64,000 nucleotides of DNA from Minisyncoccota bacterium. GTDB taxonomy: Bacteria > Patescibacteriota > Minisyncoccia > UBA6257 > GWB1-50-10. The notes beneath the pieces were generated by a model. It saw only the letters and a program-made list of their open reading frames with translations. It had not been told where the DNA came from and searched no databases. Shown here piece after piece: positions 31,947 through 55,487 of this stretch. The position numbers were made by a program, and so were the translations under genes. The stretch covers positions 233,625 to 297,624 of the forward strand of contig JAGVBB010000003.1 in NCBI GenBank assembly GCA_020059915.1. The letters run 5' to 3'. The first letter of the stretch is position 1, and each line of letters opens with the position of its first letter.

Positions 31947-32318
31947 TTAAAAAGGACACCCAGCTTTCTTGGCAAGTACATACAATTCTTGTTGACCCGC
32001 GAGTTGCGTTCCATCAGGAAATGTCCATGTTGGATATCCCTGTACGCCGGCATCAATACATTCCTTTTCTCTCTCGGTGCATTCAACATATGTAATATTT
32101 TCAAATGCACTCCCGAATTCTTTTTTCTGATTTTGGCAATGTGGACACCAATATGTTCCATACATCACCACTCCTTTTTCTTTCAAGCAAAGTGATAGCG
32201 CTGTAACTTCAGCAGTCGGTGGTTCTGGTTGGGCGGAATACCACAACAACACAAAAAGACCGACTACAAATACTGTAAGTCCAATCGTAATAAATATATT
32301 TTTTTTCTTCTGATTCAT
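31947..32318 (-). CDS. membrane-anchored thioredoxin-like protein (CPHC active site)
   Basis: N-terminal TM, then the thioredoxin-fold motif YGTYWCPHCQNQKKEF. Confidence 0.75.
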   Translation of the reverse strand: MNQKKKNIFITIGLTVFVVGLFVLLWYSAQPEPPTAEVTALSLCLKEKGVVMYGTYWCPHCQNQKKEFGSAFENITYVECTEREKECIDAGVQGYPTWTFPDGTQLAGQQELYVLAKKAGCPF

Positions 32319-32328: not shown

Positions 32329-32450
32329 TAAAATTCTAATTTCTAAGCCCTAAATTCTAAATAATATCAAAACTCAAATATTCAAATGACTTTTGATAAT
32401 TCTTATTTTGGATTTGTTTAGGGTTTCTATATTAGTGCTTAGGGTTTTTA
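32329..32450. repeat. diverged copy of the palindromic repeat family (lacks the GC-rich core hairpin)
   Basis: ccctaaattctaaataatatcaaaactcaaatatt ... ggatttgtttagggttt ... attagtgcttagggttt aligns with elements at 51921, 52674 and 54303. The tail supplies the stop codon of 32432..32968. Confidence 0.55.
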
Positions 32451-33087: not shown

Positions 33088-33918
33088 TTATGACAATAAG
33101 AAAATGAGTATTCCCATTCCAATCATAATTGCGCCATCAATAAAACGCAATCTACCTGATACACTCTTTCTCCATGTATCAAACTTATCTATCAGTGCCT
33201 TCTTTGAGGCAATACCAAGAATGATTATTAACGGCATAACAAATAACACATTATATAAGAAAAGATATCCAAACCCGCTCATAAATGTGCGTGAATCATG
33301 GAGAAGTCCAAGAATCATAAGATACGGCCCACCAGTACAAGGAAACTCACACAAACCAACAAATGCACCAAGTATGAATGCCCCAGGAATTGACGTCTTT
33401 TCCATGAGTCGAGCCATTGTCTTGTGTGACCCTTTAGGAATCTTTAACTTTATTGGAAAAGAAGGAATATAGGTATGTATGATATCCAACATACCTAGAA
33501 CAATAATGAGTATTGCTCCGATCTTCCCAACAAAATTTGGAATACTAAAGAATGACAAAACCCGTAAAATTCCTAATCCAATTCCTAGATAAACCAGGAA
33601 AACCCCGGAAATATATGCCCCACCTATGCCCAATATTTTTTTTCTATCTGCACCAAGACTAAACAAGAATGTGATAGTGAGTAATAAAATAGAAAATGCA
33701 CAAGGATTGATACTATCAACAATTGCCGAAACAACAACCAACGGAAGGAAAAATGAATGTGACGACCGAAATAGAGAAAACATTTCTTCCCCTACCGGCG
33801 TTGTCTTAACAACAATGACAGATATCAAAAATATAATAATAAGACCGATAAATATCCAAGAAAATAATTTTTTCATATATATAACTAACAATAGCGAACA
33901 GAAAATTTTATAGAACAA
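33088..33918 (-). CDS. ccdA: cytochrome c-type biogenesis / disulfide transfer membrane protein CcdA (DsbD_2 family)
   Basis: Paired TM cysteines (SINPCAFSILL and GLCEFPCTGGPYL) in a six-TM protein. The true start is probably MKKLF at about 33876. Confidence 0.75.
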   Translation of the reverse strand: MFYKIFCSLLLVIYMKKLFSWIFIGLIIIFLISVIVVKTTPVGEEMFSLFRSSHSFFLPLVVVSAIVDSINPCAFSILLLTITFLFSLGADRKKILGIGGAYISGVFLVYLGIGLGILRVLSFFSIPNFVGKIGAILIIVLGMLDIIHTYIPSFPIKLKIPKGSHKTMARLMEKTSIPGAFILGAFVGLCEFPCTGGPYLMILGLLHDSRTFMSGFGYLFLYNVLFVMPLIIILGIASKKALIDKFDTWRKSVSGRLRFIDGAIMIGMGILIFLLS

Positions 33919-34290: not shown

Positions 34291-34300
34291 ATTTTAATAA

Positions 34301-34410
34301 ATTCTAATTTCTAAATCCCAAATTCTAAATAATATCAAAACTCAAATATTTAAATTAACTTCTTCAATTCGTGTTTTTTAGGATTTCGATATTAGTGCTT
34401 AGAGTTTATT
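34301..34410. repeat. diverged copy of the palindromic repeat family (lacks the GC-rich core hairpin)
   Basis: Very similar to the copy at 32329-32450. The tail gtttatttaa supplies the stop of the CsaA-like gene. Confidence 0.55.
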
Positions 34411-34750: not shown

Positions 34751-34805
34751 AAAACAATTATATGGTATTCCATAGTAAAAATAAAACCCCTTTCGGGGTT
34801 TTATT

Positions 34806-35657
34806 TTAATTTTCTGGAGATAAAAGTAATGTTGCTCGTTCTGCGTGTATACCTTGTATTTCATCCCCAATACCTTGAACCTCTACAGCGTCTCCCACTT
34901 GAAAGTTTGAAATATCTGATGGTTCGTCAATAAATGGAACTGGAATCGTCACCAATGTTCCATTTTTATATGCCTCTGTCTCCTCTTTAAATTGAGTGTC
35001 ACTTTTTTTGCCTTGCTTTGAAAAAATGGTGTTTGAACTTATCTTTATTTGCACCCTTGTTCCATCACCTTTATCCACCGCAAATCTTGTATTATCATCT
35101 GCCTTCCAACCAACAACACCAACTACCTTTTTTGGTGCACCAATATTCGGAATATCAGAAAATTTTGGAGCAGAAGATGGATTATTAATAATGATCGAGG
35201 TCGCTAAGAATTCATTGTATTCCTCAACATTTTTATTAGCACGAATGGTCACAAAATCTCCAATAGTAATAGTATTACCCTCAACCCGTTCTTCTATAAA
35301 CGGTAATGGCGGTTCAGTTTTTGTATTATTAGTTTTTTGTGATTCCAAAAAGATCGCCTGTTCTTTTTCAAACAAAGAAATATCTTTTTGAATTTGTTTC
35401 TTAACAAGTGTTGTTGAATCAAATGTAACAGTTTTGAGTATTTTTTGGTCTTGTGAATTTCCCGCAACACCACGGAGTGTGATCGCATCAACAACAAGAA
35501 CATTTCCATTTTTTTGTTCAACTATTCCTGATATCACCACATTTCCAATATTACGAGGAGTATTCCCGGCAATATATGAAATGGCTATTGCAACCACAAT
35601 AAGAACAACTAAAGCAAGTATGGTGTATAATATTTTTTTCTTTTTTTCTTGTTCCAT
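34806..35657 (-). CDS. membrane-anchored extracellular protein, unknown function; last gene of the giant-protein operon
   Basis: N-terminal TM, 283 aa; starts 21 nt downstream of the 35679 giant gene stop. Confidence 0.5.
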   Translation of the reverse strand: MEQEKKKKILYTILALVVLIVVAIAISYIAGNTPRNIGNVVISGIVEQKNGNVLVVDAITLRGVAGNSQDQKILKTVTFDSTTLVKKQIQKDISLFEKEQAIFLESQKTNNTKTEPPLPFIEERVEGNTITIGDFVTIRANKNVEEYNEFLATSIIINNPSSAPKFSDIPNIGAPKKVVGVVGWKADDNTRFAVDKGDGTRVQIKISSNTIFSKQGKKSDTQFKEETEAYKNGTLVTIPVPFIDEPSDISNFQVGDAVEVQGIGDEIQGIHAERATLLLSPEN

Positions 35658-35678: not shown

Positions 35679-38600
35679 TTAATATGTTATTTTGACCATT
35701 CCATGACCAGAACGAACCCCTGCGGTATTTGTTTGGTTTGTTCCGGAATTATAACTTCCACCTCCACCGCCATATGTTGAGCTTCCGCTCCATGATGCCG
35801 AAGTTCCACCTCCAGAATAACCTCCCCCTGCTCCTGGTCCACCGAGCTGTCCACCACCACCGCCACCATATCCACCATAATTTTCTGTTGTGTAACAACT
35901 ATTTCCTGTTCCTCCTGCCCCACCATTTAAATAACTCTGTCCTCCATATGCGGTTGCGCAATGAGTTCCTCCATCCATTCCATTTGTACTAAATCCTCCT
36001 CCCGCTCCTCCTGCATAACTTTGGTTTGAACTACCACCTGATCCCGCAGACCCTCCAGTTCCAGTACCTGCACAACTAATCGTTACTCCAGAGGTTCCCG
36101 ACTGACCATTTCCCTCAGACGCTGTGCGCGTACATGATGTCCCATAACTTGTTGCTGGACCACCACCACCGCCACCTGCGATAATGAGTGGTACATTTCC
36201 TGTTTGTTTCACAACAAACGTTCCACCGCCACCACCATTTTCATTTCCGTGTGCTCCACCATTGCTACCTCCTTGTTGACCAACGAGAATTTTAATAACA
36301 TCTCCAGCAGTAAGAGATACTGTTCCCTTAACATATGCACCAAGTCCACCTGTTAAACTATTACTACCTGTACCACTTCCACCCTGTGCCCCCCACGCTT
36401 CAATAATATATGATCCCGTTGTCGAAGCAGTAAATGTTTGCAAACTTCCCGTTCTTCCCGTGGTAATATTATTAAATGTTACCGTTATTGGATTTGTTGG
36501 GGTTGCTGTTACCTCAGAACTCAATCCACTTTCCCCTGCTGGATTTACTGAAGAAACCTTATAGTAGTAAGCCATTACACTCAATCCAGAATCTACATAC
36601 GAAGTTGAGGTCACATTAGAGGTTAATAAAGAATATCCACTTCCCGATGTTGTGCTTCGATATACATTATATGAATATGCAAGCGCACAAGAATTTCCTG
36701 TTGGTGCAGTCCATGAAATAGTATTTGAAAGAGCACCAGGCGTTGCTGTTGCACCCGTTGGCGCACTAGGAGCAGAAAGTCCATTTGGACAAGATGCTGC
36801 GTAACAAACCAATTCTGTATTTGATCCAATATTTTGTGTCGATGTCGCCATACCCCACCCCGCAGGACAGGAAAGTGATTGATTTGCTCCTTTAGCACGC
36901 AATGTAAATGATTGAAACGGAGCATCGGTGCGATAACAAATCTGCTCGTTTACATCAACCCCATCTATAGTCACCGTACTTGTTGGTGCAGAACTCCATC
37001 CTGATGGGCAAGAAGGGGCGGGAGAAGAAATTATTTTATAGCAGGCACTATCATAGGTCGTTTGCGAGCTATATCTCTTTCGCGTGTAATTTTGGTTTGT
37101 ATATTTTGTATATCCTGTTGGACAGGTAATACTATTTGAAGCAGCATTTGCATTGTATACAAAAGTATCAGATACCCCAGAATTTGTATTATTTATACAT
37201 GCACCTGTATATGCCTGATATCCAGAAATTGGAGCATTATAATATACCGCAGAGGTATTACTCCAATTGGTAAATCCACTCGGACAACTCACTACTGAGG
37301 TTGGATTTCCCAATCCCGTATATGATTCCCAAATAAATGATGGAGGATTTCCTTTATAACACGCACCTGAATAAACCTGATCAATGCCTGCTGGGCTATA
37401 AACATACTGTCCTACCCATCGTGTATATCCTGTTGGGCAGGTCACGCTCGTTGCTCCCGAATATGATTTCCATGTAAATACATCATTTGTTGCACTTGCG
37501 TTATAACACGCTCCCGAATATGACCAATAATCATATGTATAGTCATATTGCGAACACGTAGGCTCATCAACACAATATTCATACCATGCTGGTCTCCATC
37601 GCGCATAACTGTTATCGTACCAGTTAGTAAGTCCTGTTGGGCAGGTTTGCGTACTAGCGGTATATGCACTCCAAGAAAATGACGGTAATGTCGTTCCCTT
37701 ATAACACACACCGTCATATTTGCTAGTACTATTGTCCGGATCTACATCCCACCATGTGTTAACCCATCGTGTATATCCTGTTGGGCAGGTCACACTTGAT
37801 GGTGATGGTGATCGCCACTTAAATAAATCGTTTGATGCTGATGTTGGATAACACGCACCTGTATATGCAACATATCCACTCTCACTTGAACTATAATATG
37901 CATTAGAACTCCACCACTTGGTATATCCCTCTGGACAAGTTATGTAGGTATCAGGACTATAATTGTTTACTAATTGCCAAGTAAATGATCTTGGGTCCGA
38001 GCTCCCCGATCGCAAATACATAACATTGTCACTTGCACCTAACGCCACCACCTGTGCGTTATATATCTGCCATGTTCCATTACCACTCGCATCCACTGTG
38101 AGAACATACCCCGGCGTTGCCGATGTCCCCAACTGGAATCCATTCATTTTTATTGTCCCATACACATCAAGTTTTGCTGTTGGGGTTGAGGTTCCAATAC
38201 CAACATTCCCCGTATTAATGGAATATAAATTTGAACCTGATGCATTCCAGAGTGAATATGCAGAAGAATCTGCATATGATTTTGTTGCAACATGTCCCAC
38301 CGCTGTTGGTGATCCAACAATGACAGCCCCATCAAACTGTCCCGCGCCAACAACATCAAGAGTATATGCGGGCGTTGTTGTTCCAATACCAATGTTCCCC
38401 GCATTGGTCATAGTCAATCGATATGCCGAAGTGTTGTTATTATAAAAATGCAAAGCACTTCCTGCAGAAACCAATTCCCATGATGATCCCGTTGAAAGCA
38501 AGCGAATGGAACCACTACTCCCCCCTGTTTCAAATGTCGCTAATACTCCCGATGGTGGTGCAAGATTATATAAATGAAATGGATATGTTGGATTGGTTGT

Positions 38601-39047
38601 ACCAATACCAACGTTTGTCCCGTTATTAAACAAAAGAGAGGTTGCAACCCAACTCGAACCACTATGACGAAGTGTTTGCCCCGATGTACCACTCGCTATT
38701 CCCCCACCAACCATTGAATCAACATAACTTTTTGTCACTGCGTGCGTTACTCCTGTTGGGGACCCAACAAACACCGGAGAAGAAAAATATCCCTTCCCTG
38801 TTACTTGCAATTTATACGACGGATTGGATGTATATATTCCAATATTTCCCGTGGAATTAATTACAAATAAATCATTTGATCCAAAGATAATATCATTTCC
38901 ACTTCGTTCATTTAATTTCAAAACCGCACCAGTGTTTTCAATTGAAGAAGTATTTTGATCAATAGTGATATATTGTGCGGACACAAACTCCCCCACAAAG
39001 AATGTGAGAATAATTATTATGAAGATGATAAATGATTTATATTTCAT
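35679..39047 (-). CDS. giant secreted modular surface protein 1 (tail-fibre-like repeats, two-Cys tandem repeats, Fn3, ALK/LTK-type glycine-rich domain)
   Basis: Signal peptide, N-terminal NIGIGTTTPAYTLDV / ATKSYADS repeats, about 9 repeats of V.CPTGYT.W...Y.GACY, an Fn3 (YNVYRSTTSGSGYSL), and a C-terminal WGAQGGSGTG...ILVGQQGG...GGGGGTFVV...IIAGGGGGG glycine-rich domain. Confidence 0.8.
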   Translation of the reverse strand: MKYKSFIIFIIIILTFFVGEFVSAQYITIDQNTSSIENTGAVLKLNERSGNDIIFGSNDLFVINSTGNIGIYTSNPSYKLQVTGKGYFSSPVFVGSPTGVTHAVTKSYVDSMVGGGIASGTSGQTLRHSGSSWVATSLLFNNGTNVGIGTTNPTYPFHLYNLAPPSGVLATFETGGSSGSIRLLSTGSSWELVSAGSALHFYNNNTSAYRLTMTNAGNIGIGTTTPAYTLDVVGAGQFDGAVIVGSPTAVGHVATKSYADSSAYSLWNASGSNLYSINTGNVGIGTSTPTAKLDVYGTIKMNGFQLGTSATPGYVLTVDASGNGTWQIYNAQVVALGASDNVMYLRSGSSDPRSFTWQLVNNYSPDTYITCPEGYTKWWSSNAYYSSSESGYVAYTGACYPTSASNDLFKWRSPSPSSVTCPTGYTRWVNTWWDVDPDNSTSKYDGVCYKGTTLPSFSWSAYTASTQTCPTGLTNWYDNSYARWRPAWYEYCVDEPTCSQYDYTYDYWSYSGACYNASATNDVFTWKSYSGATSVTCPTGYTRWVGQYVYSPAGIDQVYSGACYKGNPPSFIWESYTGLGNPTSVVSCPSGFTNWSNTSAVYYNAPISGYQAYTGACINNTNSGVSDTFVYNANAASNSITCPTGYTKYTNQNYTRKRYSSQTTYDSACYKIISSPAPSCPSGWSSAPTSTVTIDGVDVNEQICYRTDAPFQSFTLRAKGANQSLSCPAGWGMATSTQNIGSNTELVCYAASCPNGLSAPSAPTGATATPGALSNTISWTAPTGNSCALAYSYNVYRSTTSGSGYSLLTSNVTSTSYVDSGLSVMAYYYKVSSVNPAGESGLSSEVTATPTNPITVTFNNITTGRTGSLQTFTASTTGSYIIEAWGAQGGSGTGSNSLTGGLGAYVKGTVSLTAGDVIKILVGQQGGSNGGAHGNENGGGGGTFVVKQTGNVPLIIAGGGGGGPATSYGTSCTRTASEGNGQSGTSGVTISCAGTGTGGSAGSGGSSNQSYAGGAGGGFSTNGMDGGTHCATAYGGQSYLNGGAGGTGNSCYTTENYGGYGGGGGGQLGGPGAGGGYSGGGTSASWSGSSTYGGGGGSYNSGTNQTNTAGVRSGHGMVKITY
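36830..38000 (-). repeat. intragenic tandem array of ~135-nt units encoding the two-Cys repeat (CPTGYTxW...GACY)
   Basis: Recurring near-identical DNA words such as ggtatatcctgttgggcaggt at 37425, 37780 and others. Confidence 0.7.
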
Positions 39048-39050
39048 AGT

Positions 39051-42000
39051 TTATTTTATCCACAGCCGTCCATATCCTCTTGACGATGCTGAACCACATC
39101 CATTTACTGGATACGAATCATATCCTGTATATGCCTGATATGGATATTGATAGTGTGGACCATTACATATACCACTTGGATTTCTTCCTCCAACTGCTGG
39201 ACTGTTCCCTGTATACCCCGTACCAACTCCAGAACAGTAATTATCTCCACAAGCAGCTAAACAATCTGGATTTGTTGGATAACTTGCATAGTTGGTCCAA
39301 CTTACCCACCATCCACGTTGCGTTGTATCTCTATCGTATGAGTTCCAAGTCCAGTTTGTACGATCATGGAATGTGGTTGCGTTATATGGCGAACAATAAA
39401 ATCTAAATATTCCCAAACTTCCCGAGGCGGTTCGAATTTGATTTATAACAGTATCAGAAAACTTCCCCTTATCATCTTGCGTCCATGTTGATTTTGTACT
39501 CCACCCACTCTGTTCTGTTGTTTGTCTATGATTTGCATTTGCTGAATCAATTCCTGCAACAAGTGTCCAACCCCCTCCATCGGTGGTCATATCACAATAT
39601 GCTCGAAATGCATCACTTGTTGAACCACCATTTGGATCTATCCAATAAGTACCATCAGTCTTTGATGGGAATGCAGTCTTAATCACCTTGCAAGAAATTC
39701 CAGCAAAAGTCTGTGAGGATCCATCTGGGTCTGAAAGCGGAACAGCACTCACCTCACTACTTTGTGCACTTTCACCACCACTGTTTACTGAAGAAATTTT
39801 GTAATAATATGTCGGATAAGTTCCACTCCCTAAAATCTTAAATTCTATTTCTGCAATTCCACCATTGTTATATCCAGTACCAGAGACCGCCACAAGTTTG
39901 TAATAACGATATGCAGTAGTGTTTGCACTTAAGTCACCAAAATAACTTGGTTGTGCAACTCCACCCGGCGCAGTATATACCGCAGAAATATCAGTCCACG
40001 TTGAATTATTTGTTGATCCTCGCCACTGATAATTTCCCGTTTGTGCACCACCGCCACCCCACGTATATCGAGCCTCTGTAATAGTAATTGCAGAACCAAA
40101 ATCAAATGTTATTGATTGTCCAGAAAATGAAGTTGTTTGGAGATATGCGATAGTCCCCGTATTTCCATCAATCATGTTTGTATTTGGATACCCAGAATAA
40201 CTCCATAAATTATCTGAGAGAAGTGTAATAAGTGATGTTCTATTTCCAATGCTTTGTGTTTGAGTATATGTTGATGTTGCGCTTGTGGTGATTGAAGTAT
40301 CTGAATACGTTGTACCTGCAATACCACTCGTAACAAGTGAGAATCCAGATCCAGAGGTTAAACTTCTATATATATTATATGTTTCTGGTTGCGAGCATAC
40401 TCCTCCACCACTTGGTGCTGTCCAAGAAAGATTTATACTTTGACTGGCTCCGGTAGCGGATGGACTAGTTGGAACATCCGGTGCAGTCATCCCCTCCGAG
40501 CAAGCAAAATAGCAGGCAAGTTCCGTGTTCCCTGCAACGTTGGTTGCGGACATTGCTGGAGCCCACGCAGCACTTGGACAAGAAATAGATTGCGAAGATC
40601 CTTTCTTTGTTATCTGCATTGTTGTCACCGCCGAATCAGTTTTGTAACAAATTTTCTCTTTTACATCATATCCATTGGTAAGTACTGTCTGACAAGTTGT
40701 TTCACTCCATCCAGATGGGCAGGATGGACACACTGTTGCATCAAACGTCTTGTAACAGGTTGCGTCCCATGCTTGGACACTAGATCCTCGTTTGTATGCA
40801 AATTGTCCGCTTTTATATTTTGTATATCCTGTTGGGCAAGTTACCGTGTCCGACGCCACCATCGTCTCAATATTAAATGCATCAGCACCAGTTGCAGTGT
40901 TACTTATACATGCTGCAGTATATGCATCATAACTATTTCCAGTTCTCCATTTTGCATTTGCATCATACCACTTGGTATATCCTGTTGGGCAGGTATTATT
41001 TGCCATATTCCCACCAGTGTATGCATCCCAAATAAATGATGTCGGATTCCCTTTATAACAAACTCCAGAATAATACTGGTTATTTCCTGGACCATATACA
41101 ATGTCACTTGGATACCACTTAGTGTATCCTGTTGGGCAGGTAAGAGAGGTTGGAGAGGTTGATTTCCATGGAAAATAGTCATTTGTTGCACTTGTGTTGT
41201 AACACGCTCCAACATAGCTATAGTATCCAGATCCAGAAGAATACCATTGTGCATTTGAATCAAACCATTTTGTATATCCCGTTGGGCAGGTAAGAGAGGT
41301 TGGCGTTCCAAGTCCTGTGTATGATTCCCAATTAAACGCTGTTGTTGGAGATCCTTTGTAACAAACGCCACTATAGTATGCCTGCGAAGAATAAATACCA
41401 TAACCATAATACGAGGTATTAACCCACCTCGTATATCCTGTTGGACATACTACCGAATTTGGAGATGTCATTGTCTTCCATGAAAAAATATCAGTTGTTG
41501 TATCCGCGTTATAACACGCCCCCTCATACGACACATTTCCCGAAAGGTCCGCATACCAATATGCATAACTCTGATCAAACCATTTTGTATATCCCGTTGG
41601 GCAGGTTACTGACGTGGGACTATTTGTTTCCCATGTAAATGAATTCATAATAAGTGTTATTGGGTTTCTTAATTTCATAACACTCGTTCCATATGCATTC
41701 CCAACATTTGCAATTGACTGCCATGTACCAACACCACTTGCATTTGCAATTAAAATATTTCCTGCAGTTGCGGAGGTACCCAACTGAAATGAGGACATTT
41801 TCACCGTTCCCATAACATCAAGTTTTGCCCCTGGTGAATTTGTTCCAATGCCAATGTTTCCTGATGGAACGGTATATGTGTTAGTACTTGATGACACCCA
41901 CATTGAAACTGCAAGTGCATCAACATATGCCTTGCTCGCCGCATGCCCCGCCGCGGTTGTGGTACTTATAAGAACAGGAGAAGAAAAATTTCCCGTTCCC

Positions 42001-42713
42001 GCAACATGGAGTAAAGACGCAGGAGATTGTGTTCCAATACCAACATTTCCTGCATTTGTTATTGTCGTACGATATTGTGATGTATTGTCATTATAAAATT
42101 GCAGACCGGATCCCGTCGCACCAATTTGCCACGATGATCCTGTTGATCCAATTTTTATAAATGAAGCGGATGTTCCTGTTTGAAAACGAGAAAGCACGGC
42201 AGATGTTCCGCTATATACATGCAGTGGGGCTGTTGGGTTTGTTGTTCCAACACCAATATTTGTTCCATTGTTGTAAAGTGTTGAATCACCAAACCATCCA
42301 GATCCAGTATTTCTTAATGTCTGCCCAGATGTTCCTGAACCAACTCCTCCTGCAATAGTAAAGTCTGCATAGGATTTTGTTGAAATATCAGAAGCGATTT
42401 GCGGTTCTCCAATGGTGAGTGGATTTACAAAATATCCAGCACCCTGCACATGCAATGGGTATTGAGGATTTGTTGTGTTTATACCAATCTTATCCCCTGA
42501 AGTATTTATATATATGATTCCGTCTCCTACTGAAATATCATATGCACTCCGTGCATTCAAATACAATGGTGCATACCACGATTCAACAGAATTACTATCA
42601 ATGGTAACGCTTTGTGCATACACTGATGAAAACGAAAACACAAAACACAACATAAATATGCTCAAAAATAAAATTCTATATGTACTTATATGCGTTTGTA
42701 TGTTCATTTTCAT
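39051..42713 (-). CDS. giant secreted modular surface protein 2 (tail-fibre-like repeats, two-Cys tandem repeats, Fn3, discoidin-like domain, C-terminal fibrinogen-related domain)
   Basis: Likely start MKMNIQTH... (signal peptide); the ORF track start at 42752 overlaps the upstream gene. The C-terminus DGTYWIDPNGGSTSDAFRAYCDMTTDGGGWTLV is a strong FReD signature. The mid-region ITFDFGSAITITEARY...YQWRGSTNNSTWTDIS is discoidin/F5-8C-like. Confidence 0.8.
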   Translation of the reverse strand: MKMNIQTHISTYRILFLSIFMLCFVFSFSSVYAQSVTIDSNSVESWYAPLYLNARSAYDISVGDGIIYINTSGDKIGINTTNPQYPLHVQGAGYFVNPLTIGEPQIASDISTKSYADFTIAGGVGSGTSGQTLRNTGSGWFGDSTLYNNGTNIGVGTTNPTAPLHVYSGTSAVLSRFQTGTSASFIKIGSTGSSWQIGATGSGLQFYNDNTSQYRTTITNAGNVGIGTQSPASLLHVAGTGNFSSPVLISTTTAAGHAASKAYVDALAVSMWVSSSTNTYTVPSGNIGIGTNSPGAKLDVMGTVKMSSFQLGTSATAGNILIANASGVGTWQSIANVGNAYGTSVMKLRNPITLIMNSFTWETNSPTSVTCPTGYTKWFDQSYAYWYADLSGNVSYEGACYNADTTTDIFSWKTMTSPNSVVCPTGYTRWVNTSYYGYGIYSSQAYYSGVCYKGSPTTAFNWESYTGLGTPTSLTCPTGYTKWFDSNAQWYSSGSGYYSYVGACYNTSATNDYFPWKSTSPTSLTCPTGYTKWYPSDIVYGPGNNQYYSGVCYKGNPTSFIWDAYTGGNMANNTCPTGYTKWYDANAKWRTGNSYDAYTAACISNTATGADAFNIETMVASDTVTCPTGYTKYKSGQFAYKRGSSVQAWDATCYKTFDATVCPSCPSGWSETTCQTVLTNGYDVKEKICYKTDSAVTTMQITKKGSSQSISCPSAAWAPAMSATNVAGNTELACYFACSEGMTAPDVPTSPSATGASQSINLSWTAPSGGGVCSQPETYNIYRSLTSGSGFSLVTSGIAGTTYSDTSITTSATSTYTQTQSIGNRTSLITLLSDNLWSYSGYPNTNMIDGNTGTIAYLQTTSFSGQSITFDFGSAITITEARYTWGGGGAQTGNYQWRGSTNNSTWTDISAVYTAPGGVAQPSYFGDLSANTTAYRYYKLVAVSGTGYNNGGIAEIEFKILGSGTYPTYYYKISSVNSGGESAQSSEVSAVPLSDPDGSSQTFAGISCKVIKTAFPSKTDGTYWIDPNGGSTSDAFRAYCDMTTDGGGWTLVAGIDSANANHRQTTEQSGWSTKSTWTQDDKGKFSDTVINQIRTASGSLGIFRFYCSPYNATTFHDRTNWTWNSYDRDTTQRGWWVSWTNYASYPTNPDCLAACGDNYCSGVGTGYTGNSPAVGGRNPSGICNGPHYQYPYQAYTGYDSYPVNGCGSASSRGYGRLWIK
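40500..41630 (-). repeat. intragenic tandem array encoding two-Cys repeats (paralogous to 36830-38000 and 44820-45900)
   Basis: ggtatatcctgttgggcaggt / ggtatatcccgttgggcaggt words at about 40975, 41125, 41275, 41440 and 41590. Confidence 0.7.
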
Positions 42714-42723
42714 AGTTTTTATA

Positions 42724-45700
42724 TTATCTTGTACATGTAATGTTGACCGCATAGTCAGTTGAGTTCTGATTATTACACTCGCTCAAATATCCAGAAGGAG
42801 GTGTTGGTGCAGCAGCACATTGTGTTGGCTGGGAACCAAAACTCCAATTTCCTGATTGTCCATCATACAATGTTACATTTGAAGAGGTACTCCAAGCACA
42901 ATCAATTGCTGTTCCAGAACCAATCGCATATCCATTTGGTTGTGAACCCCAAACACCATTTCCAATACTATGATATGCGGCATAAGAGACGCCGGAATTT
43001 GCTACTGTACATGAAGAATACCCAAGCTGTTGTCTGATCTGCGTCAATACATTGGAATCCCACTCACTATTCATCATACGAGCAATAAGTTTGTGTTGTG
43101 GATTTGACCAACTCGCAAGACGCGTGAATTGTGCATCCACACAAATTTCCTGGTCTCCATTATCAGTGACGCTACTACAATATATTCCATACTCACAAGG
43201 ATTTGATCCATATAAGAGTGGTGGAATTGAATTATATCCTTGCTTGAACAAAGTCAACGCAGGCGCTGCGGGTATTGCACCAAATTCTGCCGTCTGTGTA
43301 CTTTCTCCAAATCCGTTAATCGCAGAAATTTTATAATAGTATGTTGTACCATTGGTGACTCCTGTATCTAAATAATAATTTCCTGTTGATGTTGCATAAA
43401 GTGAAAAACCACTTCCCGACGTTAAGCTTCTAAAAATTTTGAAATAGCTTGGAATTGCTGTACAACTAATACCTCTACTCCATGAAAGAGCAACACTATT
43501 ATTTCCTGCGGTTGATGTTGCGGAAGATGGTACAGCTGGAGCCTGAGAAACTGCACTCGTACATTTTGTAACAACAACCTGTCCCGCACCCGATCTATTC
43601 CCCGCAATATTTGATTGATTTATTCCATCATTATATGATCCACCGCCACCTCCACCATATGTACTTCCCCAACTTCCACCTGCTCCACCACCAGAATATC
43701 CTCCTCCTCCACCGGCAGTAAGTCCACCTGCTCCACCACCGCCAAATCCACCAACATTGCCACCCCATCCGGACCATACGCTTGCTCCATTATCTCCACC
43801 ATATCCTCCATTTAAGAATTTTGAACCACCATAGTCATACCACGCAGAACTTCCACCTCCATCAACATTAGTAGTTCCATCTGTTCTCCATCCCGCTCCT
43901 CCTCCAGAATAATTTGCACGACCGCCACCCATTCCATTTGTTCCTCCAGCACCCCCACCAGATGATTGCCCAGCAGTTCCATTAATAGTTGTCTGTCCAC
44001 CACTTGCTGACCCACCCCCATTTGTACCAGGCGCGCCCCCACCACCACCGGCAACAATAATCGGCAAATTATTTGAATCAACTACAAAGGTTCCCCCTCC
44101 CCCTCCATTTCCTCCATTATATTGGACACCATTGTTTGCCGGGCTACCTTGTTGTCCAACAAGTATTGAAATTACCTCACCCATTCTTAAATACACATCG
44201 CCCTGCATTTTTGCTCCAAAACCACCCGTGTAACTCATTGAACCCCCCTGTGCTCCATACGCAGCTATTGTATAAACCCCAGTTTCAGGAACAGTCCATT
44301 TCTGTGTTCCTGTTGCAACATCAAAAAATGATGAGTTCTCATCCCAGGAAGTTGAGTATGCAGAACGACATGCAGATATCGTTGGACCAGTTCTTCCAGT
44401 TTGTGAACAATTAGTAAATGTATGTGTAGTAAATGAATATAAAACATTCGGTGTCGTGACACTAAATTCATTTGAGGTAGATCCTTCTCCGGCTATATTC
44501 GTACCGGAAACCTTATAATAGTAAGTGGTATTTTGTGTTGTTGTCGCGTCGGTAAAAGTAGTCGCTTCAACTCCTGAGGCAATAAGGGAATACCCACTCC
44601 CTGAGGTAAGGCTTCTATATATATTATAAGTATCTGTTGCAGTACATTCAGTTGCACTTGGTGCTGTCCACGAAAGAGCAACTGAAATACCAGAAAGGCT
44701 TCCCGTAAGTGAGGTTGGTGTTAGTGGTAAAGAAAAACTTGAGCAGGCAACATAACAGGCACGCTCTGTATTTCCATTCACATTTGCTGTTGTACCCGCA
44801 CTTGAAAGTCCTGCGGGACAAGAAATTGATTGGTTTGATCCCTTCTTTTGCACTGTAATTGTTTGGATTGGTCCGCCTTGCTTATAACAAACACGTTCTC
44901 CATAATCGCCAAGTGATCCAGAAACAGTGTTACATGATCCAGCCGTCCATCCAGTTGGACACGACTGACAAGTTGCGGCAGGAATTTTATAACACGCACT
45001 ACTGTACGCTGCTTGACCTGAACCGCGGTAGGTGTAATACGAAGAATTCCCCTGCCATTTTGTATATCCGGATGGACAAGCAACAGCATCGGATCCCGAT
45101 GTGGAAAAATATGGAAATGCATCTGCTGCTGTTGCTGAAGAGTTTACGCAGTATCCATTATATGATTGATATGAACTACTATAGGTATAATATTTTGCAT
45201 ATGTTGTGTCATACCAATTTGTGTATCCAGATGGACAGGTCACAGTAGTTGGTGCGTATCCAGTATAAATCTCCCATGGAAGAGAGGATGGTGATCCCTT
45301 GTAGCAAACTCCAGTGTAATAAGTGACCGACCCTGGACCATATGCATAATTTGTTGGGTACCATTTTGTATATCCAGATGGACAGGTCACTGATGCTGGC
45401 GAGGTAGATTTCCATTTGAATACATCCGTGCTTGCAGATGCGTTATAGCACGACCCCGTATAGTTATAATAACCACCCGTTGATGAATACCATTGTGCAT
45501 TTGCATGATACCAAGCGGTATATCCACTTGGACAAGAAATAAAGGTGGTTGGATCTCCACTTCCCGTGTATGTCTCCCACGTAAACGATGATGGTGACCC
45601 CTTGTAGCAAGCACCATTATACCCATTATAAGTAGAATATATTCCCTTTCCTGGATATGATGCATTTGTCCAAGTAGTGTATCCAGATGGACAGGTCACT

Positions 45701-46923
45701 GATGCCGGAGATGAGTATGCTTTCCAAGTGAAGACATCGTCTATTAAGGAGTTTTGATAACAAGTACCAAAATAAGAAGGGTTTCCACTTTCGTCTCCAT
45801 ACCAGTAGGCGTTACCGTGTGACCACAATGAGTACCCCGTAGGACAGGTAAAATAAGTTGAGATAGCACTTGTACGACTTTCAAAAGCAAATGTTTTGGG
45901 ATCTCCGATTGACGAATGTAAAGTTAAAATGGCACTTCCTGGTTTTGAACCACTGGTACCTGGAAGAACTTGCCACGTTCCGACGCCACTTGCATCCGTA
46001 GTAAGAGCATAACCCGCCGTTGTTGAAGTTCCAATTTGAATTCCTGTTGCGCGAACTTTTCCAACTACCTCAAGTTTTGTTGTTGGGTTAGTAATACCAA
46101 TTCCGACGTTCCCAGAGTTCCCAGAGTATAAAGATGTTGATGTTGCGGTCCACACAGAACCGACCAACGAATCAACATATCCTTTTGTCGCAGCGTTATT
46201 TGCAGCAGTTGGTGTTCCTACAGAAAGTGTAGAAAAACTTCCCGTGCCGGCCACATCAAGCAACGACGATGGCGTTGTTGTACCAATCCCAATATTTCCA
46301 GAGTTTGCCATCGTCATCCGATACTGTAGATTGTTCCTATTATAAAATTGGAGCCCACTTGCTGTCGTCCCAAAATTCCAAGAAGCATCAGACCCAATTA
46401 AGTTTAATGTTCCCGCCGTACTTCCACTTTGGAAATAGGTAACAATATTGCCAGATGGTGCAGAATTATATACATCAAATTTTATTGTTGGACTTATCCC
46501 TATACCAACCGCACCACCATTATTGATAATTAAAGAAGATGCAACCCATCCAGATCCATTATTATGCAATGTCTGGTTTGCACTTCCCGATCCAACACCT
46601 CCACCGAGAATGGAATCAACATATCCTTTTGTGGCAGCATTGCTCGCAGCAGTTGGAGATCCCGCACCAGTGCTTGTGGAAAAAACAGCACTCCCAACCA
46701 CGTGTAACGGATATGTTGGTACAAGGGTTCCAATCCCTATATATCCATTTCCACGAGAAATAAACAAATCACCGTTTCCGATGTTTATGTTATATCCACT
46801 CGTCTTATTGAATCCAAGTCCCGATGCATCACTTTGAATATCGGTGTCGCCAAAAAAAATACTTGCACTTACTACCAATGGAAGTAGACATAAACCTATG
46901 GTTAGTATGAGAAAGCGTTTCAT
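42724..46923 (-). CDS. giant secreted modular surface protein 3 (tail-fibre-like repeats, two-Cys tandem repeats, Fn3, ALK/LTK-type glycine-rich domain, second Fn3, Cys-rich C-terminal domain)
   Basis: Signal peptide MKRFLILTIGLCLLPLVVSAS. Same module order as protein 1, plus an extra C-terminal ~190-aa domain with 8 Cys. First gene of a four-gene minus-strand operon. Confidence 0.8.
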   Translation of the reverse strand: MKRFLILTIGLCLLPLVVSASIFFGDTDIQSDASGLGFNKTSGYNINIGNGDLFISRGNGYIGIGTLVPTYPLHVVGSAVFSTSTGAGSPTAASNAATKGYVDSILGGGVGSGSANQTLHNNGSGWVASSLIINNGGAVGIGISPTIKFDVYNSAPSGNIVTYFQSGSTAGTLNLIGSDASWNFGTTASGLQFYNRNNLQYRMTMANSGNIGIGTTTPSSLLDVAGTGSFSTLSVGTPTAANNAATKGYVDSLVGSVWTATSTSLYSGNSGNVGIGITNPTTKLEVVGKVRATGIQIGTSTTAGYALTTDASGVGTWQVLPGTSGSKPGSAILTLHSSIGDPKTFAFESRTSAISTYFTCPTGYSLWSHGNAYWYGDESGNPSYFGTCYQNSLIDDVFTWKAYSSPASVTCPSGYTTWTNASYPGKGIYSTYNGYNGACYKGSPSSFTWETYTGSGDPTTFISCPSGYTAWYHANAQWYSSTGGYYNYTGSCYNASASTDVFKWKSTSPASVTCPSGYTKWYPTNYAYGPGSVTYYTGVCYKGSPSSLPWEIYTGYAPTTVTCPSGYTNWYDTTYAKYYTYSSSYQSYNGYCVNSSATAADAFPYFSTSGSDAVACPSGYTKWQGNSSYYTYRGSGQAAYSSACYKIPAATCQSCPTGWTAGSCNTVSGSLGDYGERVCYKQGGPIQTITVQKKGSNQSISCPAGLSSAGTTANVNGNTERACYVACSSFSLPLTPTSLTGSLSGISVALSWTAPSATECTATDTYNIYRSLTSGSGYSLIASGVEATTFTDATTTQNTTYYYKVSGTNIAGEGSTSNEFSVTTPNVLYSFTTHTFTNCSQTGRTGPTISACRSAYSTSWDENSSFFDVATGTQKWTVPETGVYTIAAYGAQGGSMSYTGGFGAKMQGDVYLRMGEVISILVGQQGSPANNGVQYNGGNGGGGGTFVVDSNNLPIIVAGGGGGAPGTNGGGSASGGQTTINGTAGQSSGGGAGGTNGMGGGRANYSGGGAGWRTDGTTNVDGGGSSAWYDYGGSKFLNGGYGGDNGASVWSGWGGNVGGFGGGGAGGLTAGGGGGYSGGGAGGSWGSTYGGGGGGSYNDGINQSNIAGNRSGAGQVVVTKCTSAVSQAPAVPSSATSTAGNNSVALSWSRGISCTAIPSYFKIFRSLTSGSGFSLYATSTGNYYLDTGVTNGTTYYYKISAINGFGESTQTAEFGAIPAAPALTLFKQGYNSIPPLLYGSNPCEYGIYCSSVTDNGDQEICVDAQFTRLASWSNPQHKLIARMMNSEWDSNVLTQIRQQLGYSSCTVANSGVSYAAYHSIGNGVWGSQPNGYAIGSGTAIDCAWSTSSNVTLYDGQSGNWSFGSQPTQCAAAPTPPSGYLSECNNQNSTDYAVNITCTR
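44820..45900 (-). repeat. intragenic tandem array encoding two-Cys repeats
   Basis: Repeated tgtatatccagatggacaggtcac-type words. Confidence 0.7.
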
Positions 46924-46983
46924 GTATCCTCTTATATTATTATACTATATCAATTTCCTCCGTGATATAATAAATATAAGAAT

Positions 46984-47475
46984 ATGAACGAGCAGACAAA
47001 AAAAATAAGTATATTCGGTGCTGTAGCTATAATACTTCTTATAGTTCTTGTATATACACTCCCCGAAAATGCCAATGAGCAGAAAAAAACTGCAGAAACA
47101 CAAAAAATGCCAGAGACAATTGTCAGGGATTTTTACAATTGGTATAAAGAACAAACAATCGGTGTTTTGGATGATGGGGAAACAATAGTAAACCTCGCAA
47201 AAGAAAAGGGATTTGTAACACAAGAATTTGCCATATCAGCAATGTTCCATCCCCTTGTTGTGTCAAAAAAAGCAGATGTAATTATTTGTGCATCAAAAAA
47301 AGATAACACAGCTTTTCCTAATATATTTATACCATTCCCAACAGCGAGTTCAACGGAGATAGTAAGAGTTGAGGCGGCATCCCCAATACAAAATCACAAA
47401 ATAAATATTTTATTTAATACAAAAGAGAAAAAAATAATATCAATAACCTGTCCAGTAATTCCAAATCTTGAATAA
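46984..47475 (+). CDS. membrane-anchored hypothetical protein
   Basis: N-terminal TM, 163 aa; divergent from the giant-protein operon. Confidence 0.5.
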   Translation: MNEQTKKISIFGAVAIILLIVLVYTLPENANEQKKTAETQKMPETIVRDFYNWYKEQTIGVLDDGETIVNLAKEKGFVTQEFAISAMFHPLVVSKKADVIICASKKDNTAFPNIFIPFPTASSTEIVRVEAASPIQNHKINILFNTKEKKIISITCPVIPNLE

Positions 47476-48190: not shown

Positions 48191-50641
48191 TTATTTACAT
48201 AAATAGGTGCCACCAATACTTCCAGAGATATTTCCACTATAGTTCACAAAAGCAGTACATTCTACTGCGGAAGTGAAAACACGAAAGTCTGTTCCAATTT
48301 GACAAACTGTTGTCTGCCCCACATCACCACATGGAAAAATTTGAGAACCGGCCGTACAACCAACATTGGAACCAGAGTAACAAGTTGATCCACCTGGCAT
48401 TCGATACCAAGCATAAAAAAGACTTCCAGGAGCATATTGTGTTCCAGCAGACGAAGTTATAGCTCCATCACAATTATAATCAAAACTTCCATCACCACGG
48501 TTTGTAGAGAATGAAGAAGCTTGTCCAGGTCGCGCGTTTGCATTTGAATCATAACAGTCAGAATTATTTACAACATATCCAGCTGGTGGTGTTGGACTTG
48601 CTGAAGTAGTCGAAACTGAAGGATTTCCATATCCATCGCCATCTACATCACGATAGTAGGTATATGAGGGGGTGACGGTAAGCGTTGTGTTATATGTTTG
48701 TGATTCTGAACTTCCAGTAAACCCAATATTACTCACAGACATAGTAACAGAAAGATTGTATGTTCCCGGTGTTGCGCCCGCAGGAATAATAAAATCAACT
48801 GGGTGTGAGGCAGTGCCCCCCGCGGCTACATAATAACTACTCGGTCCACAATTCGGAAAGTTGTAACACGTCGTTCCCGAAGGAAGTCCACTAATTGAAG
48901 AGACAGTAAGTGGATATGAAACTGGATCACCACTCAAATCAGAACGTGTATGTGTAAACCCACCACTAACAGTTCCACCAACCGGAGCACTTCCCCCTGA
49001 AAATGAACCGGAAATACAATTTCCATAATTCGCACCCGCGTTCCCATCATTACAGTCTCTTGAATCGGTTGTGTATCCAGATGGAGCGGAATTTCCATAA
49101 CAAACACTTGTTGCCGCATCGGAATACGGATAACTTAATGTTGCCTTTCCACCATATCCATCACCATCAGCGTCCGGATAAAATGTTCCATTTCTCCACT
49201 TAGAAGCATCGGACGACGCACAATCTGAATTGTTATTTGAACACCAACCAGTTGTTATACAATCCCATGCTCCTCCATCATACCCAATACAAAATGGTTG
49301 AAGACTTCCAGCTCCATATCCATCATGATCCGAATCTAAATATTTTTGAACAATTCGCCAAACACCAGCGGACGTATCATCACAATCTGTCCCTAAAGAT
49401 GGATAGGTTGTGTGATATGGGCACGAAGTTGCGCAATATGACGAACCACTCCCAACAGTATATCCATCGGTATCATTATCTGTATAGCAGGTTCTATATG
49501 AAGAAACTGAATAATTATAATCATCGCAATCACTTCCCGGAGAAGCAGAAACACCAGGATTTGAAGAGCCTCCACAAAGATATCCATAATTACTCCCATA
49601 CACTCCATCTCCATCATTATCTAAATACCCTCCCCAATCTTGATAAGTCCAATAATCACTATCATTACAATCGCTTCCTGGACTGGTATTGCCAGCTGGG
49701 AGTGACGTACCAGAACAAATTGAACTTTGACTCGGACTATTATACCCATCCCCATCATTATCTGCATATCCACTCAAATATTGCCATACAGTTGCCGACC
49801 CATCATTACAATCAATATTAAACGAAGTAAGTGCTGACTTTCTTACTCTTCCTCCAGCACTACTCGTATATTGAGTGCTATTTGATGGGTATCCATCACT
49901 GTCTGCATCGCTCATATATAAATCACCCTGTTGGATACTTCCTCCAGATCCCAACACAATTTTTCCTCCGTTGCTCAACGTGATTGACTTCCCCGCATTC
50001 CAAACAAACGTACCATTTACTGTGAGTGTCGCATTTGCATCAATAGCAACATTTCCGTTATCAACCCCATCAACACCACTGATGGTACACGACGCACCAG
50101 CATTGTTCGTCGTCATACTCCAATTTCCTGAAAGGGCTATACCGCACGCATCTGACCATGCAATATCAAAAAAATCTGAATTACCCGCATTGTCTTCTGC
50201 AACAAAACGAGTGGTATATCGCGTGTCATGTGTATCTTCAACAATCCAACTTCCCCTCCAAATATTTGATCCCTCATTATTAAGCGCTACCTCTTGTGTT
50301 TTTGTATCAGTAGTAATAACTGCTTTTACAGACTTAATACCAGACTCTGCAGAAACTTCAATCATAAACGTCTGCATGTCCCCCAAATGAACATCCGGAG
50401 GATCTATCTCCCCTTTTATAAATTTGATAGCATTCTCATCTGCAGATGCAACACTAAATTCATATATACCCTGTGGCAATGTCCACTCTTTTCCATCTTT
50501 ATTCACCAAAATGCGATCTTTTTGTTCAATAGCACGCTTTCCAAAAAAAGAAGGGAGAGAAAGAAATGCAATCACAAAAACCGCGAAAAAGAACACGATG
50601 AGTCCTGCAATATGCGGTTTTTCCTGCACGAATTTTTTCAT
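48191..50641 (-). CDS. membrane-anchored surface protein with MopE-like Cys/Asp repeats (DxDxDGYG calcium-binding-type motifs)
   Basis: 816 aa with an N-terminal TM and about 8 repeats of C.D.D....PG..E.CDG.DNDGDGY (DADSDGYPS, DNDGDGYNS, DVDGDGYGNPS). Confidence 0.65.
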   Translation of the reverse strand: MKKFVQEKPHIAGLIVFFFAVFVIAFLSLPSFFGKRAIEQKDRILVNKDGKEWTLPQGIYEFSVASADENAIKFIKGEIDPPDVHLGDMQTFMIEVSAESGIKSVKAVITTDTKTQEVALNNEGSNIWRGSWIVEDTHDTRYTTRFVAEDNAGNSDFFDIAWSDACGIALSGNWSMTTNNAGASCTISGVDGVDNGNVAIDANATLTVNGTFVWNAGKSITLSNGGKIVLGSGGSIQQGDLYMSDADSDGYPSNSTQYTSSAGGRVRKSALTSFNIDCNDGSATVWQYLSGYADNDGDGYNSPSQSSICSGTSLPAGNTSPGSDCNDSDYWTYQDWGGYLDNDGDGVYGSNYGYLCGGSSNPGVSASPGSDCDDYNYSVSSYRTCYTDNDTDGYTVGSGSSYCATSCPYHTTYPSLGTDCDDTSAGVWRIVQKYLDSDHDGYGAGSLQPFCIGYDGGAWDCITTGWCSNNNSDCASSDASKWRNGTFYPDADGDGYGGKATLSYPYSDAATSVCYGNSAPSGYTTDSRDCNDGNAGANYGNCISGSFSGGSAPVGGTVSGGFTHTRSDLSGDPVSYPLTVSSISGLPSGTTCYNFPNCGPSSYYVAAGGTASHPVDFIIPAGATPGTYNLSVTMSVSNIGFTGSSESQTYNTTLTVTPSYTYYRDVDGDGYGNPSVSTTSASPTPPAGYVVNNSDCYDSNANARPGQASSFSTNRGDGSFDYNCDGAITSSAGTQYAPGSLFYAWYRMPGGSTCYSGSNVGCTAGSQIFPCGDVGQTTVCQIGTDFRVFTSAVECTAFVNYSGNISGSIGGTYLCK

Positions 50642-51889: not shown

Positions 51890-51920
51890 ATCTATAGAAT
51901 TAGTATAACACACTGCAATA

Positions 51921-52080
51921 AACTCTAATATCTAAAAACTAAATCCTAAACAAACCTGTCTGCCGATAGGTAGATTCAAATGACCAAAACTCAAAATATT
52001 TAGAACATTTGGATTTTGATATTGTTTAGAGCTTAGCCTGCCTGTCCGGTAGGCAGGAATTAGTGCTTAGAGTTTAATAA
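51921..52080. repeat. palindromic IVS-like repeat element, copy 1 (upstream of 50648..51889)
   Basis: aaactctaatatctaaa...caaaactcaaaatatttagaacatttggattttgatattgtttagagcttag CCTGCCTGTCCGGTAGGCAGG aattagtgcttagagtttaataaaa; the core hairpin is at 52037-52057. Confidence 0.8.
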
Positions 52081-52081
52081 A

Positions 52082-52100
52082 AAAGCCCTTTTGGGCTTTT
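52082..52100 (-). terminator. terminator GCCC-AAAA-GGGC plus U-run for the 52101..52658 gene
   Basis: Hairpin at 52085-52096 abuts the stop codon. Confidence 0.7.
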
Positions 52101-52658: not shown

Positions 52659-52673
52659 AAGTTAATTATAACA

Positions 52674-52818
52674 AAAACTCTAATATCTAAACCCTAAATT
52701 CTAAACAAATTTAAATGACCAAAACTCAAAATATTTAGAACATTTGGATTTTGATATTGTTTAGAGCTTAGACCTGCCTGTCCGGTAGGTAGGAATTCGT
52801 GCTTAGAGTTTAATAAAA
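52674..52818. repeat. palindromic IVS-like repeat element, copy 2 (upstream of 52101..52658)
   Basis: Nearly identical to copy 1. The core at 52773-52793 has one substitution that keeps pairing only as G-U on the plus-strand transcript. Confidence 0.8.
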
Positions 52819-54273: not shown

Positions 54274-54302
54274 TTCTTTAATTGTAACAAAAACAATTAA
54301 AG

Positions 54303-54448
54303 AAACTCTAATATCTAAACTTTAAATTCTAAACAAATTCAAATAACCAAAACTCAAAATATTTGAAACATTTGGATTTTGATATTGTTTAGGATTTAGA
54401 CCTGCCTGTCCGGTAGGCAGGAATTAGTGCTTAGAGTTTAATAAAAAA
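54303..54448. repeat. palindromic IVS-like repeat element, copy 3 (upstream of 52840..54273)
   Basis: Same architecture as copies 1 and 2; core hairpin at 54401-54421. Confidence 0.8.
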
Positions 54449-54976: not shown

Positions 54977-54991
54977 AATATCATTATACAC

Positions 54992-55480: not shown

Positions 55481-55487
55481 ACAGTTT

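Follow-up and report, generated by a model that had tools for sequence, protein, structure and literature searches.

Bdellovibrio recognises its prey with mosaic adhesive trimers (MATs), surface-displayed trimeric fibres that resemble phage tail fibres and whose paralogues exchange tips of TNF-like, C-type-lectin or novel type; members are Bd2133, Bd3182, Bd1334, Bd2439, Bd2734 and Bd2740 (Caulton et al. 2024, PMC10769870). We examined a 64,000-nucleotide (nt) stretch of contig JAGVBB010000003.1 from a Minisyncoccota bacterium (the window), in which three tandem minus-strand genes, here called g3, g2 and g1, are followed by a smaller fourth gene, g0. Comparison with known domains and related loci suggests that this operon probably encodes MAT-like or phage-tail-fibre-like surface fibres with which a bacterium of the candidate phyla radiation (CPR) grips a partner or host cell. 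To our knowledge, host recognition and holding by CPR bacteria (Patescibacteria) are largely unknown beyond the type IV pili of Saccharibacteria. The fibres of g1, g2 and g3 appear to be the best candidates in the window for such a grip. Their stalk is homologous to characterised Bdellovibrio prey-recognition fibres, and the locus would provide concrete, testable candidates for host holding and extend the MAT and tail-fibre design to a CPR bacterium.

An earlier note on the window, made from its letters, had placed here three adjacent genes of 1122, about 1221 and 1399 amino acids (aa), and had doubted that they were fragments of one pseudogene. The open reading frames (ORFs) were found exactly there, all three intact and free of internal stops. 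The start of g2 was placed at M14 (42713), giving 1220 aa, because this start agreed best with the N-termini of its orthologues. The exact products of g1 and g3 were already on record, annotated as hypothetical, for a Candidatus Parcubacteria metagenome-assembled genome (MAG), on a 303,818-bp contig, and also on JGI contig Ga0104751_1001115. The modules of the three proteins were mapped as follows (TNFL, TNF-like; GRD, glycine-rich domain; minus strand shown as (-)).

42724-46923 (-): gene g3, 1399 aa, RJQ26062.1, intact frame; signal peptide at aa 1-20
45970-46863 (-): stalk of g3, aa 21-318
44746-45897 (-): Cys repeats of g3, aa 343-726
44452-44745 (-): first Fn3 domain of g3 (Fn3a), aa 727-824
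43567-44451 (-): ALK-like TNFL+GRD module of g3, aa 825-1119
43243-43566 (-): second Fn3 domain of g3 (Fn3b), aa 1120-1227
42727-43242 (-): 8-Cys C-terminal domain of g3, aa 1228-1399
39051-42713 (-): gene g2, 1220 aa from M14 (39051-42752 from the first ATG); signal peptide at aa 1-33
41718-42614 (-): stalk of g2, aa 34-332
40503-41645 (-): Cys repeats of g2, aa 357-737
39735-39815 (-): Fn3 F/G strands of g2, aa 967-993, preceded in the protein by the N-terminal part of Fn3 (aa 738-816) and a discoidin/CBM32-like insert (aa ~817-966)
39054-39734 (-): fibrinogen/intelectin-like domain of g2, aa 994-1220
35679-39047 (-): gene g1, 1122 aa, RJQ26060.1, intact frame; signal peptide at aa 1-24
38055-38975 (-): stalk of g1, aa 25-331
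36792-37991 (-): Cys repeats of g1, aa 353-752
36495-36791 (-): Fn3 domain of g1, aa 753-851
35682-36494 (-): ALK-like TNFL+GRD module of g1, aa 852-1122

The three proteins aligned co-linearly over their first ~800 residues at 42-48% identity, running from signal peptide through stalk and Cys repeats to Fn3, the same module order that the earlier note had described. By inspection, the leaders showed basic and hydrophobic n/h regions with AXA-type sites (VSA/Q, VYA/Q and VSA/S). The stalk is ~300 aa long and free of Cys, and the repeat motifs first quoted for it were present in each protein, GIGTTxP..KLxV three to four times and ATKxYVDS twice. When a profile of the three stalks was compared with the PDB, the only significant matches were Bdellovibrio MAT fibres: Bd2133 (8ond, E = 1.1e-14), Bd3182 (8ojn, 2.5e-10) and Bd1334 (8oml, 1.4e-3), the PDB entries covering only distal MAT parts. 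A weak match was also obtained to a cyanophage virion structural protein (3e-6). The window fibres resemble MATs in several respects: the beta-helix fibre repeats are homologous, the proteins are ~1000 aa long with a signal peptide, paralogues combine a constant fibre with exchanged C-terminal tips that include TNF-like and lectin types, and both are similar to phage tail fibres.

Among 206 database relatives of g3, all except the close ones had only the stalk in common with it; they came from diverse bacteria, including other CPR lineages, and many carried Peptidase_S74 or YadA-type domains. One relative, P0042 from Falkowbacteria (1439 aa), is annotated as type II secretion system F (PF00482) and matches the g3 stalk over 72% of the stalk length; possibly, a pilus-platform protein has here been fused to a fibre stalk.

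The window fibres depart from the MAT design in what joins stalk to tip: a disulfide-repeat module of 400 aa, then an Fn3 adaptor. Each gene encodes eight two-Cys repeats, six long (~50 aa) and two short, slightly fewer than the "about 9" first counted. The long unit reads FxW...SVTCPxGYTxW...YxGxCY and the short unit CPxGW...CY. The mature proteins contain 24, 28 and 32 Cys, and since all these counts are even they fit full disulfide pairing outside the cell. The module proved to be rare: a profile found five matches among 1.84 billion representative proteins, four of them in the syntenic relatives. On a contig labelled Candidatus Altiarchaeota lies the fifth, the sole carrier outside the Parcubacteria clade, a protein of 585 aa (L008, 8780-10537 of JAWAEV010000006.1) in which the same stalk is followed by four Cys repeats as the C-terminus; either transfer across domains of life or an error of binning could explain its presence there. 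The gene adjoins surface proteins rich in N-glycosylation sequons. No match to the module was found in 50,697 phage genomes, a metagenome scan with the repeat patterns returned only the already known contig of genome A (introduced below), and the predicted structure of the module gave no significant structural match. A scan of genomes returned the Altiarchaeota-labelled protein as the one true relative; a 4230-aa Omnitrophota protein that it also returned was rejected as a homologue, as only the CPxGY motif is common to both. That protein (L009, 3548-16240 of JBAXRK010000002.1) has ~70 tandem units of the form CPxGYTGTL..C..G.F....G.C, then a glycosidase-like C-terminal region.

The Cys-repeat module is the most conserved part of proteins that are large, secreted, beta-rich and abundant-looking, features that would also suit structural components of the envelope, part of an S-layer or sheath with the Cys repeats and Fn3 as scaffold. 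The stalk profile gave one very weak S-layer match (9fsa, E = 0.16). We consider such a role very unlikely, given that neither S-layer-homology nor cell-wall-binding domains were found in the fibres and that distal lectin-type domains and cassette swapping would be unexpected for lattice proteins.

The Fn3 domain that follows the Cys repeats, with its own conserved Cys pair, is supported, as the earlier note had proposed, by matches to PDB 3mpc at E = 2.7e-9 for g1, 3.4e-6 for g3 and 6e-3 for g2, with Pfam fn3 falling just short of its threshold. That note had missed two features of this region. In g3 a second Fn3 (aa 1120-1227) lies beyond the ALK-like module, scoring below threshold with Pfam fn3 (22.7 against a cut-off of 25), and in g2 the discoidin domain is nested inside Fn3. 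Alignment showed the discoidin to be a ~150-aa insertion that separates the last two Fn3 strands from the rest of that domain; the window and genome A have it, and genome B and all other Fn3 domains of the locus lack it.

The C-terminal ends assigned in the earlier note, ALK/LTK-type glycine-rich domains in g1 and g3 and discoidin plus fibrinogen-related domains in g2, were all upheld. Single-sequence phmmer searches matched these ends to the TNFL+GRD segment of ALK/LTK at E = 2.5e-4 for g1 and 5e-12 for g3. A five-sequence profile, built from the g1 and g3 ends and their orthologues, matched ALK (1.6e-21), LTK (1.2e-17) and C. elegans SCD-2 (3.8e-8) in the PDB. The match began at an N-terminal FTxCxxxGxxGPTxxxCxxAY motif and extended over the glycine runs as far as the last strand, covering both the TNF-like and the glycine-rich segments of the animal module (PDB 7N00, 7NX3, 7LRZ, 7NX0; PF12810). 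The non-glycine N-terminal stretch alone gave 6.4e-15, so the match is not an artefact of composition. In g3 the motif is complete with both cysteines, and the g1 form is shortened and lacks the N-terminal Cys loop. PF12810 did not exceed its Pfam threshold with the whole proteins, and the g1 C-terminal fragment reached 16.8 of the required 24.5 bits. Unlike its ALK and LTK counterparts, the window module is bacterial and terminates a fibre, and kinase, EGF and MAM domains are absent from its context.

The best profile matches of the g1 and g3 glycine-rich domains were to a phage family whose function is not known (phrog_22713, 3e-40 and, for g3, 1.9e-38). By tblastn, the ALK-like domain was also found in Synechococcus and actinobacterial phages, adjoining structural or collagen-like genes. 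The glycine runs of g1 and g3 may form a polyglycine-II lattice. Presumably the likeness of these ends to the phage adhesin gp38 is one of function and composition, and PDB searches gave no gp38 sequence match to the fibre ends. As far as they are cited in PMC13243192, phage fibres with polyglycine tips (the T-even gp38 adhesin, Salmonella phage S16) similarly have a distal glycine-rich domain of polyproline-II type that acts as a modular host-range determinant and undergoes tip exchange. That bacterial and phage proteins end in clear homologues of the ALK/LTK module bears on the origin of the animal receptor domain.

In g2 the discoidin domain passed marginally (PF22633, 28.7 bits against a cut-off of 27.8) and matched the CBM32 protein AlyQ (7d29) at E = 0.004. 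The fibrinogen-related domain (FReD) was supported by NF040941 (E = 6.6e-20; 70.9 bits against a cut-off of 30; YCDxxxxGGGW core), COLFI (6e-14; 52.3 against 26.2 bits) and intelectin-1 (5.9e-7). Its core, SCxxIK...YCDMTTDGGGWT, resembles that of the intelectins and the 'GGGWT' FReD family (NF040941; PDB 4WMQ, 7E1E). The recognisable part is the first ~70 residues: matches ended at about residue 1087 of 1233, and no ligand-binding distal (P) subdomain could be recognised. The distal half, where FReDs bind their ligands, is instead Cys-rich and unrelated to known members, and it could not be aligned even with the g2 orthologue of genome B.

The further Cys-rich C-terminal domain that the earlier note had seen in g3 was confirmed as a 172-aa domain with 8 Cys (aa 1228-1399), following the ALK-like module and second Fn3. 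It had no Pfam or PDB match and none in a scan of viral contigs. An AlphaFold2 model from three sequences reached a pLDDT of 51, too poor for a fold search, and the domain stays unclassified for this reason. It was present on proteins P0008 and P0010 at ~80% identity, both of which a word-indexed search with the domain alone had missed, a false negative. Overall, the tips differ from those of MATs in being an ALK-type TNFL+GRD, a discoidin nested in Fn3, an intelectin-like FReD and an 8-Cys domain.

Discoidin/CBM32-like and intelectin/FReD-like domains are generic carbohydrate binders, and strong purifying selection and old paralogy (below) fit a housekeeping surface function. The proteins might accordingly be general extracellular lectins or matrix proteins, serving to form biofilms, attach to particles or capture glycans and not to recognise a specific host cell. 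This appears unlikely to us, as the stalk homology is specific to predator cell-targeting fibres and phage structural proteins, receptor-binding proteins typically re-assort their end cassettes between genomes, as seen here, and five stalk-family genes are clustered within 24 kb.

To compare the locus with its relatives, we used two metagenomic genomes, A (L002/L003) and B (L004/L005), and a more distant one, L007, in which the arrangement is kept in part. The order TPR gene, divergent small ORF, g3, g2, g1, g0, tRNA-binding gene and DsbD was the same in genomes A and B. Positional orthologues were 66-76% identical and paralogues 44-48%, which indicates that the triplication is older than these genomes. 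Comparison of this kind, which the earlier note had called for, revealed module swapping more strongly than that note could see. The 8-Cys domain of g3 in the window and in genome B sits on g2 in genome A, in place of the FReD; the moved domain retains 80% aa and 76.6% DNA identity over 623 nt, above the backbone. Genome A g3 has a different Cys-rich end; in genome B, g2 is without the discoidin insert, and its FReD matches that of window g2 in the first part alone. Alignment of g1, g2 and g3 showed that the paralogues diverge after Fn3, and the exchange joints fell at the conserved Fn3 F/G strands (YYYKxS..N..GE...SEVSAxP). The position of these joints indicates that in cassette exchange Fn3 plays the part of a constant adaptor, its C-terminal edge being a defined recombination joint for tip exchange.

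The earlier note had read the array as a variable attachment locus. The tandem paralogy and the module swapping, seen in the 8-Cys domain on g3 or g2, agree with this; a signature of rapid variability was not found. The ratio of nonsynonymous to synonymous substitution (dN/dS, Nei-Gojobori) was ~0.07-0.2 in all shared modules and lowest in the Cys repeats, rough values because dS is saturated (>1). DNA identity between paralogues in the window was limited to patches of 65-73%. The "extensive intragenic DNA repeats" noted before turned out to be motif-level echoes of 30-76 nt at 60-93% identity, and no repeat of at least 70 nt above 78% identity was present inside the fibre genes. Hypervariation by a diversity-generating retroelement was rejected: neither a reverse-transcriptase gene among the scanned ORFs nor a pair resembling template and variable repeats was found, only an Avd-like 23S_rRNA_IVP gene (55050-55412). 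Old paralogues under strong purifying selection argue against a fast-switching contingency locus, and the variation is a slow shuffling of cassettes, not rapid switching.

Variable C-termini on a constant N-terminal scaffold are also found in polymorphic toxins and effector-delivery proteins with variable C-terminal toxin domains, and neither the 8-Cys domain nor the end of genome A g3 has an assigned function. We regard a toxin system as extremely unlikely here. The identified ends are binding modules, not enzymes, the searches run gave no toxin Pfam, NCBIfam or PADLOC-type signal, and the 3-21-nt gaps leave no room for immunity genes after each paralogue.

The linkage of the fibre genes to g0 was examined from the spacing of the genes and their flanking signals:

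46924-46983 (-): 60-nt gap 5' of g3; contains a TATAAT box and, 5 nt ahead of the ATG, the ribosome-binding site AAGAGGA
34806-35657 (-): gene g0, 283 aa, N-terminal transmembrane helix at aa ~9-29; last gene of the unit
34778-34807 (-): terminator-like hairpin, AAAACCCC-GAAA-GGGGTTTT then a T run, overlapping the g0 stop codon

Intergenic gaps were 10 nt (g3-g2), 3 nt (g2-g1) and 21 nt (g1-g0), and no convincing terminator was found inside the unit. Together with the strong hairpin after g0 and the synteny, these gaps make a single four-gene transcription unit, as first proposed, well supported if not proven. A sigma-70 scan gave no full -35/-10 match in the 60-nt gap upstream of g3, so the promoter is a putative one, with -10 box and ribosome-binding site recognised by eye. 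The same gap serves a divergent 163-aa ORF (46984-47475, plus strand), which has an N-terminal transmembrane helix and no family match and is kept in the same position (163-167 aa) in all related loci. The product of g0 showed only a weak match to DUF5666, and its family comprised only three clusters among 5.8 billion proteins. In every genome with known context, namely the window, genomes A and B and L007, g0 follows the array. Its product is a lineage-restricted partner protein and putatively an anchor or assembly factor. Also unlike MATs, the genes form a conserved tandem operon that has a membrane protein of its own, lack an S74 chaperone and belong to an organism labelled Parcubacteria, not to a deltaproteobacterial predator.

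The phage-like features raise another explanation, that these are tail-fibre genes of a prophage, tailocin or other mobile element and not cellular genes. The fibres resemble phage proteins, namely phrog_22713, phrog_7388 and cyanophage and actinophage homologues, and an upstream 421-aa protein matches a tail-fibre PHROG. Against this, the neighbours examined were ordinary chromosomal genes (PEP synthase, UvrA, UvrB, a tRNA-binding protein, DsbD-type and thioredoxin-like proteins), with no phage genes among them and specifically no capsid, portal, terminase, baseplate or integrase genes. Synteny extends over four genomes, the GC content of the locus is only modestly above that of its flanks, and Sec signal peptides, absent from virion fibres, are present on the proteins. 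A mobile-element origin is thus exceedingly improbable.

We therefore return to cellular surface fibres for gripping a partner or host cell. The genes g3-g2-g1-g0 would give three paralogous, Sec-exported surface fibres and, from g0, a small partner protein anchored in the membrane. The N-terminal beta-helix stalk of ~300 aa would trimerise near the cell, the eight disulfide-bonded beta repeats, almost exclusive to this lineage, would provide a rigid extension, and Fn3 would be the constant adaptor between shaft and tip. The distal binding module would be an ALK/LTK-type TNF-like plus polyglycine domain in g1 and g3, extended in g3 by the further Fn3 and the 8-Cys domain, and a discoidin plus an intelectin/fibrinogen-like lectin in g2. 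Three fibres could thus carry three or more binding specificities for the partner or host surface, which may be re-assorted over evolutionary time by cassette exchange at the C-terminal edge of Fn3. Export, trimerisation, surface display, anchoring via g0 and host adhesion are in this sense predicted properties, and the adhesin and episymbiosis roles are suggested by the Parcubacteria label of the MAG, the stalk homology to Bdellovibrio MATs and the lectin-type ends.

Several points weigh against a role in partner-cell grip. The ligand of the ALK-type module in animals is a protein cytokine, so that a lectin role for the ALK-type ends is analogy only. Neither an LPXTG motif, a lipobox nor a C-terminal sorting signal was present in g1, g2 or g3, whose products end in ...GMVKITY, ...YGRLWIK and ...VNITCTR, and the absence of a recognised anchor from the fibres leaves their attachment to the cell unexplained. 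The stalk is much shorter than in Bdellovibrio MATs, the episymbiotic lifestyle of the organism is assumed from its phylum, and the dN/dS values are rough, as noted above. Sortase anchoring, which calls for an LPXTG motif, a hydrophobic segment and a basic tail at the C-terminus, was considered and rejected.

Some elements of this design are already known: MAT fibres and the swapping of their tips are published, and Pfam groups non-animal proteins with the ALK glycine-rich domain. New are the CPR setting, the tandem operon, the dedicated partner gene, the Cys-repeat shaft, Fn3 as an exchange joint with a nested domain, and the set of end domains. No paper on any of these features was found in the literature, of which our coverage was incomplete; in particular, neither ALK-type domains forming the tips of bacterial fibres nor MAT-like fibres in CPR bacteria were described there. 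More speculative, and on balance doubtful, are two linked claims. The Cys module may be an undescribed disulfide-stabilised beta-repeat fold, confined to a small Parcubacteria clade and one Altiarchaeota-labelled protein, that forms the lineage's own shaft towards a possibly archaeal host; and the ALK/LTK TNFL+GRD may be an old receptor-binding tip of prokaryotes and phages. Were the latter true, the ectodomain of the animal receptor would trace its descent to an adhesin domain of microbes.

Just downstream of the operon lie genes for a DsbD/CcdA-type membrane protein (33088-33918, minus strand), syntenic also in genomes A and B, and a thioredoxin-like protein (31947-32318, minus strand). These neighbours would suit the disulfide handling of Cys-rich fibres, a putative link.

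Five MAT-like genes lie on the same strand within a 24-kb part of the window. In addition to the three described, a 1338-aa stalk-family gene (55488-59504, minus strand) contains at least seven GIGTTxP..KLxV motifs and HAATKGYVDS, and a 421-aa gene (50648-51913, minus strand) contains three motifs and matches tail-fibre phrog_9942 at 6e-9. These two fibres have a different C-terminal domain in common (..DP.Y.I.GK.YATY...GGVKEE..). Upstream of the array, 48191-50641 (minus strand) encodes a protein of 816 aa, membrane-anchored or secreted, that contains 28 Cys and repeats of the motifs D.DGDGY and C.D.D; it has no Pfam match, and related genomes have it in the corresponding place upstream of their arrays. 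Four small cupredoxin-like genes stand among the fibre genes on the minus strand (52101-52658, 54470-55066, 59706-60299 and 60407-60931). The Avd-like 23S_rRNA_IVP gene is also on the minus strand, and a reverse-transcriptase gene was not found nearby.

Two families of intergenic repeats were observed in the window. A ~150-nt repeat with the hairpin CCTGCCTGTCCGGTAGGCAGG occurs at 51933-52083, 52668-52818, 54296-54446 and 55404-55481. A 79-nt repeat (AAATTCTAATTTCTAA...) occurs at 32331-32409, 34299-34377, 52675-52753 and 54303-54381, just upstream of four minus-strand starts, those of the thioredoxin-like gene, a 120-aa ORF, a cupredoxin and a 477-aa ORF, suggesting that it may be a shared regulatory element.

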